NCBI GenBank assembly: GCA_965224085.1
Contig: CBDCYI010000005.1
Coordinates: forward strand, 992,001-1,056,000
Length of the DNA stretch: 64,000 nucleotides
Reading direction: 5' to 3'
From: Candidatus Marinacidobacterales bacterium
GTDB taxonomy: Bacteria > Acidobacteriota > Vicinamibacteria > Marinacidobacterales > SMYC01
Below, one piece after another: positions 13,719 to 19,687 of this stretch (its first letter is position 1; every line of letters begins with the position of its first letter). The notes below the pieces were generated by a model. The model saw nothing but the letters and a program-made list of their open reading frames with translations. It did not search any database and was not told where the DNA came from. The position numbers were made by a program, and so were the translations under genes.

Positions 13719-15667
13719 CTAACCGGCACTTCCACAGATGAACAAGCGTAAGTGTTGGCATCATTAGTCTTGTTTTTTAAGAGAGGCGTGTGTACTGCTT
13801 ACATCGTGCGGGGATTGATTCCGAGGAGGTTGAATGCTTTGTGCTGCAAGGGTGTAGGGCGAGTAACGCTGACGAAGGACAGGCCGCGGGCGTCGTTTTC
13901 GACTTGATTTTTCGTGACCGTAGCAAGATCAGAAAGAAGCGTTCTGAAACTGTGGACGGGCAACCCATCGGGAGACTTCTTGGTAGAAGCCTTTGCCTGG
14001 GCGGAGTCTGAAGACGTTGCTGGGCTGACGATGGATGAGCGTTTGGCTTGGGCACCGTCAGTGTCGTCGTCGTCAAACAAGATCGGGGCGAGGGCTTTTC
14101 GCATGTGCCATTCCACGTAGTAGGCGAGCATGCAAAGAAAGATGTGAGCTCGAACTCGCTCAGCGTTGTAGTGATAGATGGGCTGTACTTTCAAATCCAC
14201 GGTTTTGCAGCAACGAAAAGCGCGTTCAACGACTGCCAAGCCTTTGTAGGTCTTGACAGCTTCGTCTGCGGAGATGGCCTCTTCGGTGAGGCTTGTACGA
14301 ATGATATAGATACCGTCGAGGGTCGCCTCACGCTCGATGTTATCGTTGTCGCGCTCGAAGTCGAAGCTGTCGTCCGTAATGGTGTAGCGAAAGTGCTTGC
14401 CCATCTTGCTCCGAGCGAACACTCGACCCAATCGTATGCCGATGGTATCTTTGCCTCGCAAAGGACGCTGGTCTCGCTTCGTCGCTTTGCGAATCACTTC
14501 TAGCTTCGACTCCGTCGACACAAGCATCTCTTCCCGTTTCCGTGCCCGCTCGGCAGCAAGAAGAGGGTTGCGACAAGCAATGAGTCGCTCACCAGGAAAG
14601 TTAGGATGATGGATCTCCGCTAGGTCGACCTCATCGAACAGAGAAGGCTGTAGCATTCCGTCTTTTGCAAGTCGCTGAATCTGCGGGGCACGAAGTGAGC
14701 TGATCCACTCGAGACCTTCCTCTGGTCGAAGTTCCTCGCGAATCCGAGCTTCGGTGATCATCCCTCGGTCACCTACGAAGACGATATTGTCAAGCTCAAA
14801 ACGTTCTCGGACTTTGCGAATTTGGCTCCCCAGTGTTGCGGGATCTCCGGTGTTGCCTTCGAACACCTCTACCCCGACCGGCCGACCATTACGCTCACAC
14901 AGTAAGCCGAACACGATCTGCAGTTTGTTTTTCTTGCCGTCTCTCGAGTAACCGAGCTTCGCCAGAGGGCACGACCGACCTTCCACCCAAGTCGACGTCA
15001 AGTCGTAGAGAACCAAGCTGCCCTGCTGCAGATGGCGTTTCGCCAGTTTCTTCTCTATGGCAGCTTGGCGGCTCAAAAGCCAATCCAGGGCCTCATACAA
15101 CTCATCCTCGTTGGAGTCTTCAACTCCAACACACTCACCCAAAGACGAAGTCAAGGTCTGTTTCGATAGACCACGGGCCGTGGCCAACTTGGAGCCCGGC
15201 TCTACGATTCGCGCCACAATCATCGCCACCACGAGGTCACGCTCTCGGCGCTGGCGGCTATGGATGATTCGCTCGAGGCCAACTTTGCGCAGCGTTCCCA
15301 GCACGGCCGCAACATGTCCGTGAGGTTTGCTTCTGGTGATCTCGAATTGCTGAGCCTCACCCAAATCCACGTTGCCCTTCAGCAACTGGCGAAGAGCTTC
15401 AATTCGAGCGGGCTTCCACTTCGAGATGTTGGCGACGGTCCTCGTTTTGGGCTTACCGCCTTCGCGGTAGCTTTCGCGAATGAGAATCGCTGGGGGCGAG
15501 TTACGGTTCGGCACCTTGGCGATGTACATGCGCCGACTATACAGGATCTAATCAGCATTATCAACCATACCGTTATTATTACATGCGTACTGATTACACT
15601 TAGAACGGCCACATCTGCTTTAAACGTACGGGTTTACATGCGTCTAGCCGGCGGAAGCTCCGCCTAA
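13719..15667 (-). mobile_element. IS1634-family insertion sequence
   Basis: Imperfect terminal inverted repeats CTAACCGGCACTTCC (13719-13733) and GGAAGCTCCGCCTAA (15653-15667) around the transposase; no target duplication visible. Confidence 0.75.
13799..15529 (-). CDS. IS1634-family DDE transposase
   Basis: MYIAKVPNRNSPPAILIRESYREGGK, LYDLTS, GYSRDGK, VFVGDRGM, VERAFR..K, RVRAHIFLCMLAYYVEW. Confidence 0.92.
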   Translation of the reverse strand: MYIAKVPNRNSPPAILIRESYREGGKPKTRTVANISKWKPARIEALRQLLKGNVDLGEAQQFEITRSKPHGHVAAVLGTLRKVGLERIIHSRQRRERDLVVAMIVARIVEPGSKLATARGLSKQTLTSSLGECVGVEDSNEDELYEALDWLLSRQAAIEKKLAKRHLQQGSLVLYDLTSTWVEGRSCPLAKLGYSRDGKKNKLQIVFGLLCERNGRPVGVEVFEGNTGDPATLGSQIRKVRERFELDNIVFVGDRGMITEARIREELRPEEGLEWISSLRAPQIQRLAKDGMLQPSLFDEVDLAEIHHPNFPGERLIACRNPLLAAERARKREEMLVSTESKLEVIRKATKRDQRPLRGKDTIGIRLGRVFARSKMGKHFRYTITDDSFDFERDNDNIEREATLDGIYIIRTSLTEEAISADEAVKTYKGLAVVERAFRCCKTVDLKVQPIYHYNAERVRAHIFLCMLAYYVEWHMRKALAPILFDDDDTDGAQAKRSSIVSPATSSDSAQAKASTKKSPDGLPVHSFRTLLSDLATVTKNQVENDARGLSFVSVTRPTPLQHKAFNLLGINPRTM

Positions 15668-15920
15668 CGGTCGGTAGCGGCAGTTCCGGCCTACACTGGT
15701 CCGAGCCAGGCATAAGCGATCGCCTCAAAGAGTTTTGGGGTTGTCGTTAAGGTCTCTCCATATTGTAGCCTACTGATCAACCATCAGCGAGTGAGAGTTC
15801 AAGAGTCATCGCCTCTTCGCGTCGCCATTGCCATGCGATTTGAAGCAAAGGACGGCGTCGTACCCCGGATCGGTGCGTAGCAGCAGCCCCGTACGCCAGA
15901 GAGAGGGTTTTCTCGCACCG

Positions 15921-16012
15921 ATTAATAGCGGTTTGCAGGAATCGAGCGAAGCACGGCGTTACGCGAGGCACGATGCTTGTAGAGCGAGCATTCGTGCAAA
16001 CCGTAATTGAAC
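15921..16012 (-). other. attC-like imperfect inverted repeat at the 3' end of the integrase/IS91-like element
   Basis: Arms CGGTTTGCAGGAAT (15929-15942) and ATTCGTGCAAACCG (15990-16003), 13/14 paired; on the minus strand framed by GTTCAAT..ATTAATC. Confidence 0.55.
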
Positions 16013-16247
16013 TAAGCCGCCCAGCTAGCGGCAACTATGCATAAATTGGAGTGAGAAGACGGTCGGACAGGAAGTCGGAGTTGGACGTCAGGGAGTTGCG
16101 AATCGACAGAGATATGGCGGGGAAGATAGAAGAAGGGCCTACCCGGTGCGGTAACCACCACGGTAGCGTTATGAGTTCGCGACGAGACACACGAGTCCGT
16201 TTCAACGACCGGTCGGCGTTGTGAGAGGCGGAGCGAAAGCATCGTGA

Positions 16248-17406
16248 TCATGACTCATCTGGAGGGGAGCGGATCTGGAGGTTGATCCGTCGAAGCTTCG
16301 TGGAGAGAGGGCATCGGAGCATGCGACCTTTCTTGCAGCGGGGACAGATGGTGAGGTCGATGCCGGTGAGCTCCTTGAGCCGCTCGCGCCAGTCCTTGTC
16401 CTCGGTGGCACGCGAGCTGACTTGCACGTCGTCGGCGTCGGTCGTGGGTTTTGTTTTCTCATCGAGCAACTGGCGCGCGACTACGAGCTTGGTGGTCGCA
16501 TTGGAGGAGGCCATTAAGCCGAAATGACGAATCTTGACGAAACCTTTCGGCAGTACGTGCAGGAGGAAACGGCGGATAAATTCCTCTGGGGGGACGGTAA
16601 CGGTATTACCATTCTTGGTGGCGAAGCAGACGCCGTAGTGGTCGTTTGCTGTAAACGACCCAATCGATGCGGTAGAGCTTGTCTTTCAGCTCCCGGAAGC
16701 GAGGTGGGTTTCTGAGGTGGGAAGCGTTTGCGCTCAACTCAAGCTCATCTTGGTCGTAAGCGAGCCTAAGGGCATCGAGAAACTTGCTGCGAAAAAGCCG
16801 CGACATGGCCTTGACGGGAAACAGAAAGCGAGGGTTTGCGGCGTTCCACAGCTGCTGAGGGTGGTTGAGCCCGCCCCCGGAGACGATGCAATGCAGGTGT
16901 GGATGGAACAGGAGCTTCCGGGTCCAGGTGTGCAGTACGGCGGTGAAGGCAAGTTGAGCTTCGAGCCGGCTTTGGCCGAACTCCAATAGAGTTCGCGAGG
17001 CGGCGCGAAACAGGAGGTTGAACATGAACTTGGGATTGTCTCGGGCGAGAGGCTTGAGTTGCTGCGGGAGGGTGAAAACGACGTGGAAATAGTGAGTCGG
17101 AAGAATCCTCTGAGCTCGCTGCTCCATCCACTTCGCCTGGGCTAGGCTCTGACACTTGGGACAGTGCCGATTGCGGCACGAGTTAAACGAAGGCGCCGCG
17201 TATCCGCAAGCGTTACACACGTCGAGATGGCCACCTAGCACCGCCGTGCGACAGTTCTCTATAGCCCACATCACCTTGCGCTGCTCGGCTGTCAGCGCAT
17301 GGGTTTGGCGAAAGCGTGGACCATGTTCGCGGAAGATTTCCGCGATCTCGAGCAGTGGCCGTGGTGGTGACTCGACGCGGGAAGGACACAGCCCATGGGG
17401 CTGCAT
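16248..17406 (-). pseudogene. IS91-family rolling-circle transposase disrupted by a frameshifting deletion near 16640
   Basis: Zinc motif CNACG..SCRNRHCPKC, HVVFTLP, HUH motif VLHTW..HPHLH; WVVYSKRP jumps to GVCFATKNG..EFIRRFLLHVLPKGFVKIRHFG..CPRC in another frame; catalytic YxxRY segment absent. Confidence 0.85.
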
Positions 17407-17412
17407 GATGAG

Positions 17413-18273
17413 CTAGCCGAGCTTTTTGCCCTTCTTCGTTCCCAGCAAATCGAGAGGGCTCTTGATGCGCCCCAAGTGCTTTGCTGTTACCTTTGTGTAA
17501 CGGGCCGTGGTCTGGATGGAGGCATGACCGAGCAGTTGCTGCACGGTACGAATGTCTTCACCCAGTTCGAGCATATGTGTGGCAAAACCGTGGCGCAGCG
17601 AATGAGGAGTGATACGTTTGGTGAGCCCCGCCTCAGCCACGGCCTTACGAAGAGCCCAGCGAACGCCATCGTCTGAGATGTGGGCACCAGGATTACGGCC
17701 GGGAAACAAGTACTCTCCGCGAGGGCGAGTGGTTTTCCAGTAGTAGCGCAGGAAGCTCAACAAACGTTCGCTGAGCGTGACATAGCGGGCCTTGGAGTTC
17801 TTGGCGTGACGAATGTGCAAGAGCATGCGTTTGGAGTCGATGTCGGAGTGCTTCAGACAGCACACCTCGGAAACGCGCAGCCCGGCGCCGTAGGCGCTCA
17901 TGAGAATCGCGCGGTGTTTGACGGAGTTAACGGAGTGAAGCAAACAATCGACCTCCTCGCCGCTCAAGATATCGGGTAACGTGCGAGGTTTCTTGGGCCA
18001 AGGAATCTTCGCCACCTCCTCCGGGCGGTTGAGTGTGGTTGCGTAGAGAAACTTGAGAGAGGCGACGTACATGTGGTGGCTGGCCGGAGAGGCCTTCTTC
18101 TCGTTAACGAGATGAATCAGATAATCGCGGGTCTCCGGCTCGCCCATCTCGGCGGGTGAGCGCATGTAATGTGCCGCGAAATGGCGCGCTCGCAGCAGAT
18201 ACTCCTCCTGCGTGGAGCGTGCGAACCCCTTCAGTTTCATGTCGGCAAGCATTTTTTCGCTAAGGCATCCCAT
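17413..18273 (-). CDS. Tyrosine recombinase/integrase with N-terminal SAM-like domain
   Basis: GGAGGA RBS; YGAGLRVSE, HSLRHGFATH, LLGH..TTARY (R, HxxR, H and Y catalytic residues intact). Confidence 0.92.
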   Translation of the reverse strand: MGCLSEKMLADMKLKGFARSTQEEYLLRARHFAAHYMRSPAEMGEPETRDYLIHLVNEKKASPASHHMYVASLKFLYATTLNRPEEVAKIPWPKKPRTLPDILSGEEVDCLLHSVNSVKHRAILMSAYGAGLRVSEVCCLKHSDIDSKRMLLHIRHAKNSKARYVTLSERLLSFLRYYWKTTRPRGEYLFPGRNPGAHISDDGVRWALRKAVAEAGLTKRITPHSLRHGFATHMLELGEDIRTVQQLLGHASIQTTARYTKVTAKHLGRIKSPLDLLGTKKGKKLG

Positions 18274-18551
18274 GATTATTCCTCCAGTGATTTAGCAGAC
18301 GACGACCATCGCCGCCCGCGGGGGACAGGGATGATGCCATGTGTGAGAGAGCGGTTCCGAGAAACGCAGGACTCGTTGTCCGGAGCGAAGATCGAACGAA
18401 TGAAGACGACGGCGAAGCCGTCCTCCTTAATCCCTTCTGGCTCCCGTGGCCCGGAAAAACAAGGGAAACGGGTTAGAGGCGAGTGAGTTCACCGCGGCTG
18501 GCTTGCCGTGCAAAACCCGGAGTCCGGAGCCCCTGCCGGAGGCACCCGTCC

Positions 18552-18677
18552 GCCCATCGCCCATAGTGACTCGCATCACGGCGCGTAGGTTGTGTCCAGG
18601 GCGGCGCAGCCGGCGCGCGAAGCGCGCGAAACCTTGACACGACCTGCGCGCCGTGATTCCCTGGAAGGGCGATGGGC
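18552..18677. other. 126-nt nested inverted repeat (long hairpin)
   Basis: GCCCATCGCCC (18552-18562) / GGGCGATGGGC (18667-18677) enclosing a 26-bp stem ATCACGGCGCGTAGGTTGTGTCCAGG / CCTTGACACGACCTGCGCGCCGTGAT (18575-18657). Confidence 0.85.
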
Positions 18678-18779
18678 TGCGGCGAAAAAGGCGCAGGCAA
18701 AATGCCCCCAGTTTTGGCTCACCAGTTCGGGAGAGCTTGCAGGTCCCGCCGCCGCGCGAGCGGCTTAGTTCAAGAAACG

Positions 18780-19687
18780 TTACCTGGACAGCGCGCTCTG
18801 TAGGCGCGCCACGTTCTCCTCCATCACGGATAGATAGTCGCCCGAGGTGGGGCGATTCCCGCAAGGATCGAAGATCGCGATCGCGATACCCATGCCTCGC
18901 AATCTCGCGGCCGTGTCCGCGGGTGGGTCCGTTTTCCAGAGCATGAGCTCGGCGGGGTGGTCTTCGAGCAGATGTTCGAGGTTGTGCCATGCGTCGTCCT
19001 CGAAGTCGACGGACTGCACGTTCAACCCGTAGCGGCGCGCGAAGTATTGATACACGGGCTGCGAAGCGACGAGAGGGACGCTACTCCCGACCGTTTCCTC
19101 CATCCGTGCGTCGAGAGCAACCAAGTCTTTTTCGAGAGCGGCCAAGCCGTCCTCGAAGTCAGCGTTTTGCTCGGGGTGCGCGGCGGCCAGCGCGTCGCGG
19201 ATCGCACGGGCTTGAATGACGGCCTGCCTTGGATCGAGCCACGTCGTGACGGCCGTCTGGCCGTGGCTGTGCTCACCTTCGGGGCCATGACTGTGGACGA
19301 CCGCATCTTCAATAATGATGTAGTCGTCGCGAAGCTCTCGGACGTATCGACGAGCTTCGAGGCTGGAAGCGACACACGCTCCACCCACTTGGCGTAAGTC
19401 GCGCCGTTGAGAAGGATCAGATCGGCTTTTTGGTAGCGAGCGATCGTCTCTGCATCGGGACTCCAGCTCGCGGGGTCGGTCTCCGCCGGTGCGGGAAAAG
19501 TCACGTCGACAGCCGCGCCTCCGATACGCTCCGCGAAATAGGCGAGCGGGTAGCTGACGGTATGTACACGGAGAGGAGCTTTCGCGCGTTCGGCCGGTGC
19601 GACATCCGTAGTCTCTTCCGAGCTTCCGCATGCCAGCGGCAGTACCGCCATCGTTATGGTTAACGCTAAACGCAAGTTGAACCTCAC
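18780..19687 (-). pseudogene. ZnuA/TroA-type metal-binding lipoprotein, frameshifted near 19331
   Basis: Lipobox LPLAC; YPLAYFAERIGG, DPASWSP, ADLILLNGA in one frame; HSHGPEGEHSH, TTWLDP and C-terminus in another. Confidence 0.8.

Follow-up and report, generated by a model that had tools for sequence, protein, structure and literature searches.

An IS91-family element with a Xer-like recombinase gene and integron-cassette-like ends in a Marinacidobacterales genome

Introduction

A subgroup of the IS91 family of insertion sequences (IS), as listed in ISfinder and TnPedia, has an upstream phage-integrase-type gene, and the role of this gene is given there as unknown. We analysed an IS91-family element that carries a recombinase gene in a 64,000-nt stretch of 60% G+C DNA from a Candidatus Marinacidobacterales bacterium (GenBank assembly GCA_965224085.1, contig CBDCYI010000005.1, positions 992,001 to 1,056,000). 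This stretch is called the window hereafter and corresponds to G000:C5:992001-1056000, where G000 is the window's own genome. For the IS91 family, the accessible part of one account describes a terIS, whose single palindrome adjoins a cleavage tetranucleotide (in IS801 and IS1294, GTTC), and an oriIS, which contains one or two palindromes and is abutted by a GTTC/CTTG target; insertion is by single-stranded circles only and leaves no target duplication (bioRxiv 10.1101/2025.01.24.634351). ISWz1, according to the available excerpt of its description, belongs to the IS91 family and forms circles together with resistance genes (PMC11322121). A full-text literature search returned no account of the ends, targets, recombinase role or cassette-like plan of the elements studied here. 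Annotation pipelines call two unrelated genes at such loci, and the true ends and target rule given below permit correct annotation.

Two further systems are relevant for comparison. The CTX phage reportedly integrates in single-stranded form by Xer recombination at dif. The attC sites of integron cassettes fold better on the bottom strand and contain G-T pairs, as far as the available extracts of the published work describe them. Integron integrases insert cassettes also into double-stranded genomic sites, attG, which have a G|WT consensus, are cut on one strand and are likened to dif by their authors, according to the portion of that report at hand (bioRxiv 10.1101/2022.09.11.507474). The element in the window links rolling-circle transposition, integron attC recombination and Xer/dif-type sites, which are usually handled apart.

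We identify the two genes of the element, map its ends exactly, show that no target sequence is duplicated, count about 13 copies in one genome, and describe an end architecture common to seven families, together with target logos. The anatomy and the logos are compatible with a two-enzyme mechanism. In this mechanism, which we hold at about an even chance, the HUH enzyme would produce a single-stranded circle by copy-out, and the folded, attC-like joined ends of this circle would be inserted by the recombinase at ATAAC-N5|TTA without duplication.

Results and discussion

Ends and copies of the element

The element occupies positions 15922 to 18773 of the window, with its genes on the minus strand. 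It is a deletion-bearing copy of 2852 bp, and the intact form is 2941 bp, so that the 2.5 kb of the first-pass annotation was too short. The element is present about 13 times in the window's own genome, where our search returned seven full-length copies and many fragments. The copies are near-identical, separated by a handful of single-nucleotide polymorphisms, and the read depth on the element was approximately 8-15 times the flank depth in isolate-like runs. GC skew was weakly negative around the seven full-length copies in both orientations (four plus, three minus) and therefore says nothing about how the copies are oriented relative to replication.

The two termini are sharply defined. All 13 A termini (the side of 15922) start at the equivalent of 15921/15922; on the other side, the 13 B termini all stop at the base that corresponds to 18773, with the letters ..GGCTTAGTTCAA. 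The B termini close ..GCGGCTTAGTTCAA; one of the 13 has the single-base variant TTCGA, and three are broken 4 nt from the end by a small element. This small element is a 541-bp IS200-like element (Pfam Y1_Tnp, 3e-40; approximately 41 genome matches), which lies after TTAGT, 4 nt inside the B termini at C5:267343, C5:1596405 and C5:1631244 (L004, L003 and L013). Beyond it stand the last 4 nt of the B terminus (TCAA) and then normal target; the window copy has no such insertion. Either TTAGT is the target of the IS200-like element and the terminus is a hot spot, or the composite is still mobile.

The first-pass annotation had placed the integrase and the HUH transposase as one module between TTAAT direct repeats and had proposed recombination at A/TTAA. 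That the two genes form one mobile module is borne out by the copy ends. Both pentamers were also located on the plus strand (15922-15926 and 18427-18431), the second 154 nt upstream of the point where the integrase starts (18273), close to the 155 nt given before. TTAAT is uncommon as claimed, with 16 matches on both strands of the 64 kb (six on the plus strand) against 35.1 ± 6.3 in shuffled sequence. Six plus-strand matches per 64 kb mean that about 5% of arbitrary 500-nt zones contain one; the scarcity lends no weight to the pair being meaningful, as the pentamer was freely picked.

The first TTAAT is a genuine boundary, and the junction A|TTAAT lies exactly at 15921|15922. The second (18427..18431, plus strand) is internal. 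It sits 342 bp inside the element in every copy, and homology runs on past it to the true end at 18773|18774 (GTTCAA|G), so that there is no direct repeat. The motif common to both junctions is N|TT (element ..TAA|TTGAAC.., target ..N6|TTA..) rather than TTAAT. GTTC at 16009-16012, which had been offered as the boundary that would speak against the repeats, is an internal inverted copy of the left terminus and no boundary. A boundary at GTTC|, 2 nt further inside as in IS1294-like elements, was ruled out because it does not fit the empty allele. With every B terminus at the equivalent of 18773, and with empty alleles that skip 15922-18774, we regard a TTAAT-bounded 2.5-kb unit as next to impossible, even though both pentamers are present and one of them marks an end.

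Uninterrupted sites confirmed the ends. For the copy at C5:390790-393739, the uninterrupted site was found in three same-genus genomes (G001, G004 and G003), and no duplication was seen. The empty site reads ..GGATAACGGAAG|AGAGGTCGG.. and the occupied site ..GGATAACGGAAG|TTGAAC...CTATTAA|AAAGGTCGA.., and the base after ..TTAA is target DNA. Empty sites were sought for six copies, and clean ones came from L006 only. The window flanks in G001 were too diverged near the insertion point; L005 adjoins a conserved 70-nt stretch within variable DNA; the flanks of L002 are other repeats; and for L008 and L004 the relatives have other insertions or deletions at the site.

The empty allele of the window site itself was present in Logan contigs that join 15921 to 18775 with one letter, A, between them. 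It was found in four of eight runs (X2, X3, X9 and X5, and not in X1, X4, X10 and X7), and the X5 contig, 1569 nt in length, carries all the flank depth. On the A side, target DNA thus extends over 15912..15921, the base 15921 (A) being target and not element. On the B side (18774..18783), the 6-nt spacer GAAACG is followed by TTAC, which in gene orientation is a GTAA half-site plus spacer. A within-genome flank paralogue (C4:1712907) likewise shows the 6 nt beside the B terminus to be target DNA. A Tn916-like carried coupling sequence was considered for them and rejected, since they occur in the uninterrupted paralogue and in the empty sites. A kinase paralogue was too diverged for base-level comparison.

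Genes and anatomy of the element

The recombinase gene (17413..18273, minus strand) is intact and encodes a 286-aa tyrosine recombinase of the Xer/integron-integrase clade (Phage_integrase, 9.2e-42; Phage_int_SAM_4, 1.9e-14). Its top NCBIfam match was archaeal XerA (199.3 bits, cut-off 220), followed by the integron integrase family TIGR02249 (193.6 bits, cut-off 265), XerC (172.7 bits) and XerD (162.6 bits). The integron integrase family is thus its second-best match. The nearest solved structures were XerC-like 4a8e (1.4e-40), IntI4 (2a3v) and XerA, and the RvsE, HxLRHxfATH and GH...Y stretches align to the XerC-like chain. In run X10, a low-depth contig of another organism carries the element with 52 nt of the recombinase gene (over 17668-17721) replaced by one base.

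The transposase gene lies 6 nt from the recombinase gene in G000. The intact transposase is 415 aa long and scored 407.8 bits on NCBIfam transpos_IS91 (NF033538; cut-off 125). HPHLH at residue 168 and YLGRY at residue 266 are present in six of the seven full-length copies, and by analogy they probably represent the HUH motif and the two catalytic tyrosines. Both genes are intact in the same number of copies, the exception being the window copy. There, an N-terminal Y2 HUH transposase open reading frame (ORF) of 266 aa (16606..17406, minus strand) matches Zn_Tnp_IS91 and positions 2-100 of the 183 of Y2_Tnp. The C-terminal remainder (16248..16640, minus strand) is out of frame, as seen from the translation frame and the alignment with the six intact copies. 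Between them lies the scar (16640..16644) of an 89-bp deletion between two GGTCG repeats, by which residues ~256-285, including YLGRY, were lost and the frame was shifted. Because the catalytic tyrosines are lost, the window copy would depend on intact copies for the first (HUH) step.

In gene orientation, the element starts with the left terminus, the left inverted repeat (IRL; TTGAACTAAGCCGC, 18760..18773), which is a TTRRRY-type start. A subterminal, terIS-like palindrome (GCCGCTCGCGCGGC, 18751..18764) overlaps it, 5 nt from the left-end GAAC/GTTC. A leader of ~490 nt, the recombinase gene (501-1361) and the transposase gene (1368-2615) follow. After ~230 nt stands GCGGCTTAGTTCAA, the right inverted repeat (IRR; 16007..16020, where the plus strand reads TTGAACTAAGCCGC), a perfect inverted copy of IRL that provides a RYYYAAC-like box, GTTCAAT. 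The unit closes with a right-end hairpin module, ori-like and attC-like (15922..16006), that ends ..CCGCTATTAA. In it, CGGTTTGCA (15929-15937) and TGCAAACCG (15995-16003) form the two arms, and a bulge of 4 nt adjoins the terminus. No Rfam match was obtained at E up to 0.1 across 15500-19000.

This anatomy agrees in part with the IS91 family. Like its members, the element encodes a Y2 HUH transposase with a zinc-binding N-terminus, shows no target-site duplication at the empty sites of the three same-genus genomes and the four runs, and has two distinct ends, with a palindrome near GTTC upstream and a hairpin region downstream; this last likeness is one of anatomy. Unlike them, it has its boundary 2 nt beyond GTTC, repeats its left terminus in inverted form 85 nt inside the right end, and encodes a second enzyme. 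The attC-like hairpin and the integron-cassette-like layout that the first-pass annotation had noticed were both found again: a TTRRRY-type start, a RYYYAAC-type inverted copy with hairpin and tail at the end, crossover before TT and no target duplication. In contrast to cassettes, which are promoterless cargo genes, the element has its own recombinase and transposase. No attI, Pc or cassette array was noticed beside the seven full-length copies, the genome not having been searched for integrons.

Parts of the element also occur in other settings. The hairpin module with the start of IRR stands without the rest of the element as a 91-nt solo copy at G000 C11:1389402-1389492, among IS fragments, and as two 113-nt copies of 80-83% identity in a genome of another family (G029; C13:332136 and C19:14734). 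The leader upstream of the recombinase gene (18513..18677) contains a 126-nt self-complementary stretch, and other genomes of the genus and family (G001, G003, G002, G004, G010 and G012) hold scattered relatives of it at 75-89% identity. This stretch resembles a REP- or MITE-like repeat that the element has taken up, which would account for the G000 family being ~400 bp longer than its relatives.

Insertion targets

We aligned 13 left and 13 right flanks of the G000 copies in gene orientation (two left flanks are paralogous). The logo shows A (12), T (9), A (12), A (12) and C (9) at −10 to −6 (n = 13), five free positions, the insertion, and then T (12), T (10) and A (8) at +1 to +3. TAA at −9 to −7 was found in eight of 13 flanks, compared with a genome frequency of 0.0032 (binomial P ~1e-17). 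The target is thus an ATAA-N6-TTA(T) dyad in which the junction marks one border of the 6-nt spacer (ATAAC-N5|TTA). Such a dyad has the shape of Xer/dif-type cores. We infer that the junction lies where a recombinase on the right half-site would cut the bottom strand, by analogy with the known polarity of tyrosine recombinases.

The targets of the G000 family do not appear to be attC hairpins. Seven reconstructed targets gave folding z-scores of −0.9 to −4.3, four of them above −2, and one target lies inside a kinase coding sequence.

Four related families from the same phylum obey a G|TT rule. For G351, G was found at −1 in 23/23 targets, followed by T in 19, 22 and 18 of the 23. For G433, G at −1 was found in 9/9, TT in 8/8 and TTAG in 7/8. 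For G290, AA at −8/−7 and G at −1 were each found in 4/4, with T at +1 in three and at +2 in all four; the G179 target is G|TTT. The bases of the right flank vary in G351 (GC, GT or CT in 4/23), and therefore TT after the junction is target DNA. The rule agrees with the G|WT consensus of attG, as given in the accessible part of the attG report, and the dif-like shape and one-strand cut described there for attG are further likenesses. The G433 targets are mostly outside hairpins. One of its eight insertions, L113 (G433:C1:2420872-2423836), lies at G|TTAGCC, which is paired with GCCTAAC ~60 nt upstream; this target looks like a real attC-type site entered at its G|TT box.

The targets bear on whether the recombinase is needed at all. 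The Y2 transposase could excise and insert the element by itself. It would cleave the bottom strand just after ..AA, both at the hairpin end (target ..TAA|) and upstream (..GTTCAA|). The recombinase would then have an accessory part: it might, for example, act in regulation, resolve multimers, or influence termination or the choice of target in the manner of Orf121 in IS91. The transposase belongs fully to the IS91 family, the upstream palindrome near GTTC could serve as terIS and the downstream hairpins as oriIS, and the missing target duplication is as expected for such a reaction. In IS91, TnpA suffices for the insertion of single-stranded circles, and termination is tuned by a small ORF upstream, as far as the available text on that element states.

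We examined an IS1294-like control (L151, on an E. coli plasmid), whose ends were mapped by the extent of matches in other plasmids. It begins ..GAAC plus palindrome, and GAAC also follows its right end. The GAAC repeat of the control corresponds to TT in the G000 family, which likewise starts the element and follows its right end. However, the dyad of ATAA, 6 nt and TTA with the junction at the spacer edge is characteristic of a tyrosine recombinase that acts as a dimer on duplex DNA, whereas the known targets of IS91 are 4-nt single-strand sequences. The GTTC/CTTG target expected to abut the hairpin end is not there, and the 13 right flanks of G000 read TT(A) instead. Moreover, G|TT in the four related families equals the integron-integrase consensus. 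The recombinase gene is also retained upstream of tnpA, intact in six of seven families and N-terminally shortened in G179. Taken together, we consider transposition by the HUH enzyme alone rather unlikely, but a rival to be taken seriously.

Related families and folded joined ends

Of 401 genomes sampled across the phylum, 41 (counting G000) have matches to the intact transposase (E up to 1e-30). We extracted and compared six multi-copy families (G319, G298, G290, G433, G351 and G179; 44-50% transposase identity). In all seven families, G000 being the seventh, the recombinase gene is followed by the Y2 transposase gene, although the recombinase ORF of G179 is short at the N-terminus. Outside this sample, plasmid relatives are annotated as an IS91 family transposase beside a tyrosine recombinase in Paraburkholderia, Sinorhizobium, Rhizobium, Mesorhizobium and Clostridium. 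Plasmids of rhizobia, Burkholderiaceae and clostridia commonly carry such relatives, and the plasmid-borne ones number in the hundreds.

In G351, the related element (L085, G351:C1 771-5404) is 4.63 kb long because an IS21 (IstA/IstB) is nested, inverted, in the leader of all three full copies. At least 20 further G351 copies in that scaffold are broken by 100-N assembly gaps, and apparently short, internally deleted copies of this family turned out to be such gaps.

The ends are conserved across the families. The left terminus reads TTGAAC.. with the variants TTGGAC (G298) and TGAAC (G319), and an invariant G precedes it in four of the six relatives. The right end in all seven consists of the internal inverted terminus copy, a 75-85-nt hairpin and a short tail, and the tails of the six relatives end ..G, ..A or ..CA. 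When the two ends are joined, four of the seven families give GTTCAAC...G|TTGAAC, which provides the GTTCAAC and GTTGAAC boxes and matches exactly the RYYYAAC/GTTRRRY boxes of attC as available descriptions give them. G000 and G298 have T...A at the crossover-flanking pair, changed on both sides, and G319 deviates.

The joined ends of all seven families were predicted to fold into an outer stem of 13-17 bp and, beyond an asymmetric bulge of 4-7 nt that lies on the junction side, an inner stem with its loop, with z-scores of −2.5 to −8.0 against mononucleotide shuffles. In the folds of the G000 joined ends, IRR pairs 14/14 with the terminus at 18760-18773. The bottom strand was at least as stable as the top strand in 7/7 constructs of 150 nt and in 6/7 of 123 nt, partly through G-T pairs, and resembles attC in this respect. 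The joined-end site of ~93 nt lies within what we take to be the size range of attC. It differs from attC in that the crossover-flanking pair is A-T in G000 and not G-C, in the bulge on the crossover arm and in the stem of 14-17 bp.

This fold also bears on the opposite explanation, in which the recombinase alone would excise and integrate a double-stranded circle at N|TT and the HUH protein would be a plasmid-like Rep that replicates the circle. As this predicts, IRL, which could plausibly act as a binding arm, has the crossover at its outer margin, and the targets are dif-like; the recombinase is also intact even in the window copy with its broken transposase. However, the IRL and IRR arms would be 85 bp apart in a duplex circle and meet only in a folded single strand. 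Conservative excision and integration would also be insufficient alone for ~13 near-identical copies with the donors kept, and the transposase groups with IS91 transposases rather than with plasmid Reps. A reaction by the recombinase alone is therefore improbable in our judgement, markedly so.

A two-enzyme mechanism

The two-enzyme reading is the one that we prefer. In the proposed sequence of steps, the HUH enzyme would nick the bottom strand (the plus strand of the window) at the hairpin end and peel off one strand. Under the IS91 model, and with GTTC reading 5′ to 3′ on the bottom strand, displacement would run from the hairpin end to the upstream end. The peeled strand would be closed into a circle while the donor copy remains. 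In the circle, IRR would pair with IRL to form a stem with the crossover AA|TT beside an asymmetric bulge. The recombinase would then swap one strand with a double-stranded ATAA-N6|TT target, and replication would resolve the product. Such a mechanism would account for the persistence of the donor copies and for the lack of a duplication. It would also account for the dyad target, for the G|TT rule of the relatives and for the inverted terminus copy 85 nt inside the other end. The anatomy allows a direct test of how the HUH enzyme and the recombinase would share the work.

The last steps resemble those of Xer/dif integrative elements. As in those elements, a Xer-like recombinase would act on a folded strand and a duplex core of the ATAA-N6-TTAT type in a single strand exchange, with replication resolving the product. 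Unlike them, the present element has its own recombinase instead of the host XerCD, was found at 13 different sites instead of the chromosomal dif, and would owe its single strand to the HUH enzyme.

Several observations weigh against the two-enzyme reading. The recombinase scored under every NCBIfam cut-off. Its alignment with IntI4 (2a3v) splits into two blocks, with 22 residues between them compared with 63 in IntI4, so that the insert specific to integron integrases is absent. By analogy with the IS1294-like control, an HUH enzyme that cleaved both sites after ..AA would produce identical ends with no recombinase involved. The hairpin by itself is not unusually stable (z −1.22), and the asymmetric bulge of the joined ends is on the crossover arm, whereas the extrahelical bases of attC are on the opposite arm in the attC descriptions available. 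In the targets, the base before the crossover varies in G000 (A5, C4, G4, T0), a left half-site is lacking in G351, G433 and G179, and G319 matches neither logo. The seven families come from one phylum and are not independent.

Two further points concern the junctions. No circle or tandem junction (GGCTTAGTTCAA joined to TTAATAGCGG) was found in the assembly or in the contigs of the eight runs; contigs, not raw reads, were searched, and as contigs drop rare forms, this is silence rather than absence. The base at 18774, beside the B terminus, is G in the occupied window allele and A in the empty alleles of all four runs that have one, and the X5 contig has only three further differences in ~425 nt. 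The G/A difference may reflect variation between strains, or the joining reaction may have left it as a footprint.

More broadly, an IS91 lineage may have joined two single-strand DNA machines, in which an HUH enzyme makes the circle and an integron-integrase/Xer-like recombinase pastes it at dif/attG-like duplex sites, giving a self-mobilising cassette. We put this forward tentatively, as somewhat more doubtful than credible. If true, these elements would serve as a living model of the way in which attC-type sites and the circles of cassettes can arise without an integron. They could be related to the ancestors of integron cassettes, or be parasites of them. The origin of integron cassettes and attC sites is a long-standing question, for which they would then offer a concrete system for study.

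Neighbouring features

Another insertion sequence lies 246 bp from the element. It encodes a DDE_Tnp_1 transposase of 576 aa (13799-15529, minus strand) and has its end near 15667-15675, and its terminal 67-76 nt recur on C4, C5 and C11. On the other side, 6 nt separate the element from the end of a znuA-like gene (18780-19687, minus strand), for which the TTA of the target half-site serves as stop codon. Within this 283-aa ORF, Pfam ZnuA matches residues 113-280 only, and an overlapping ORF (19022-19687) suggests a frameshift.

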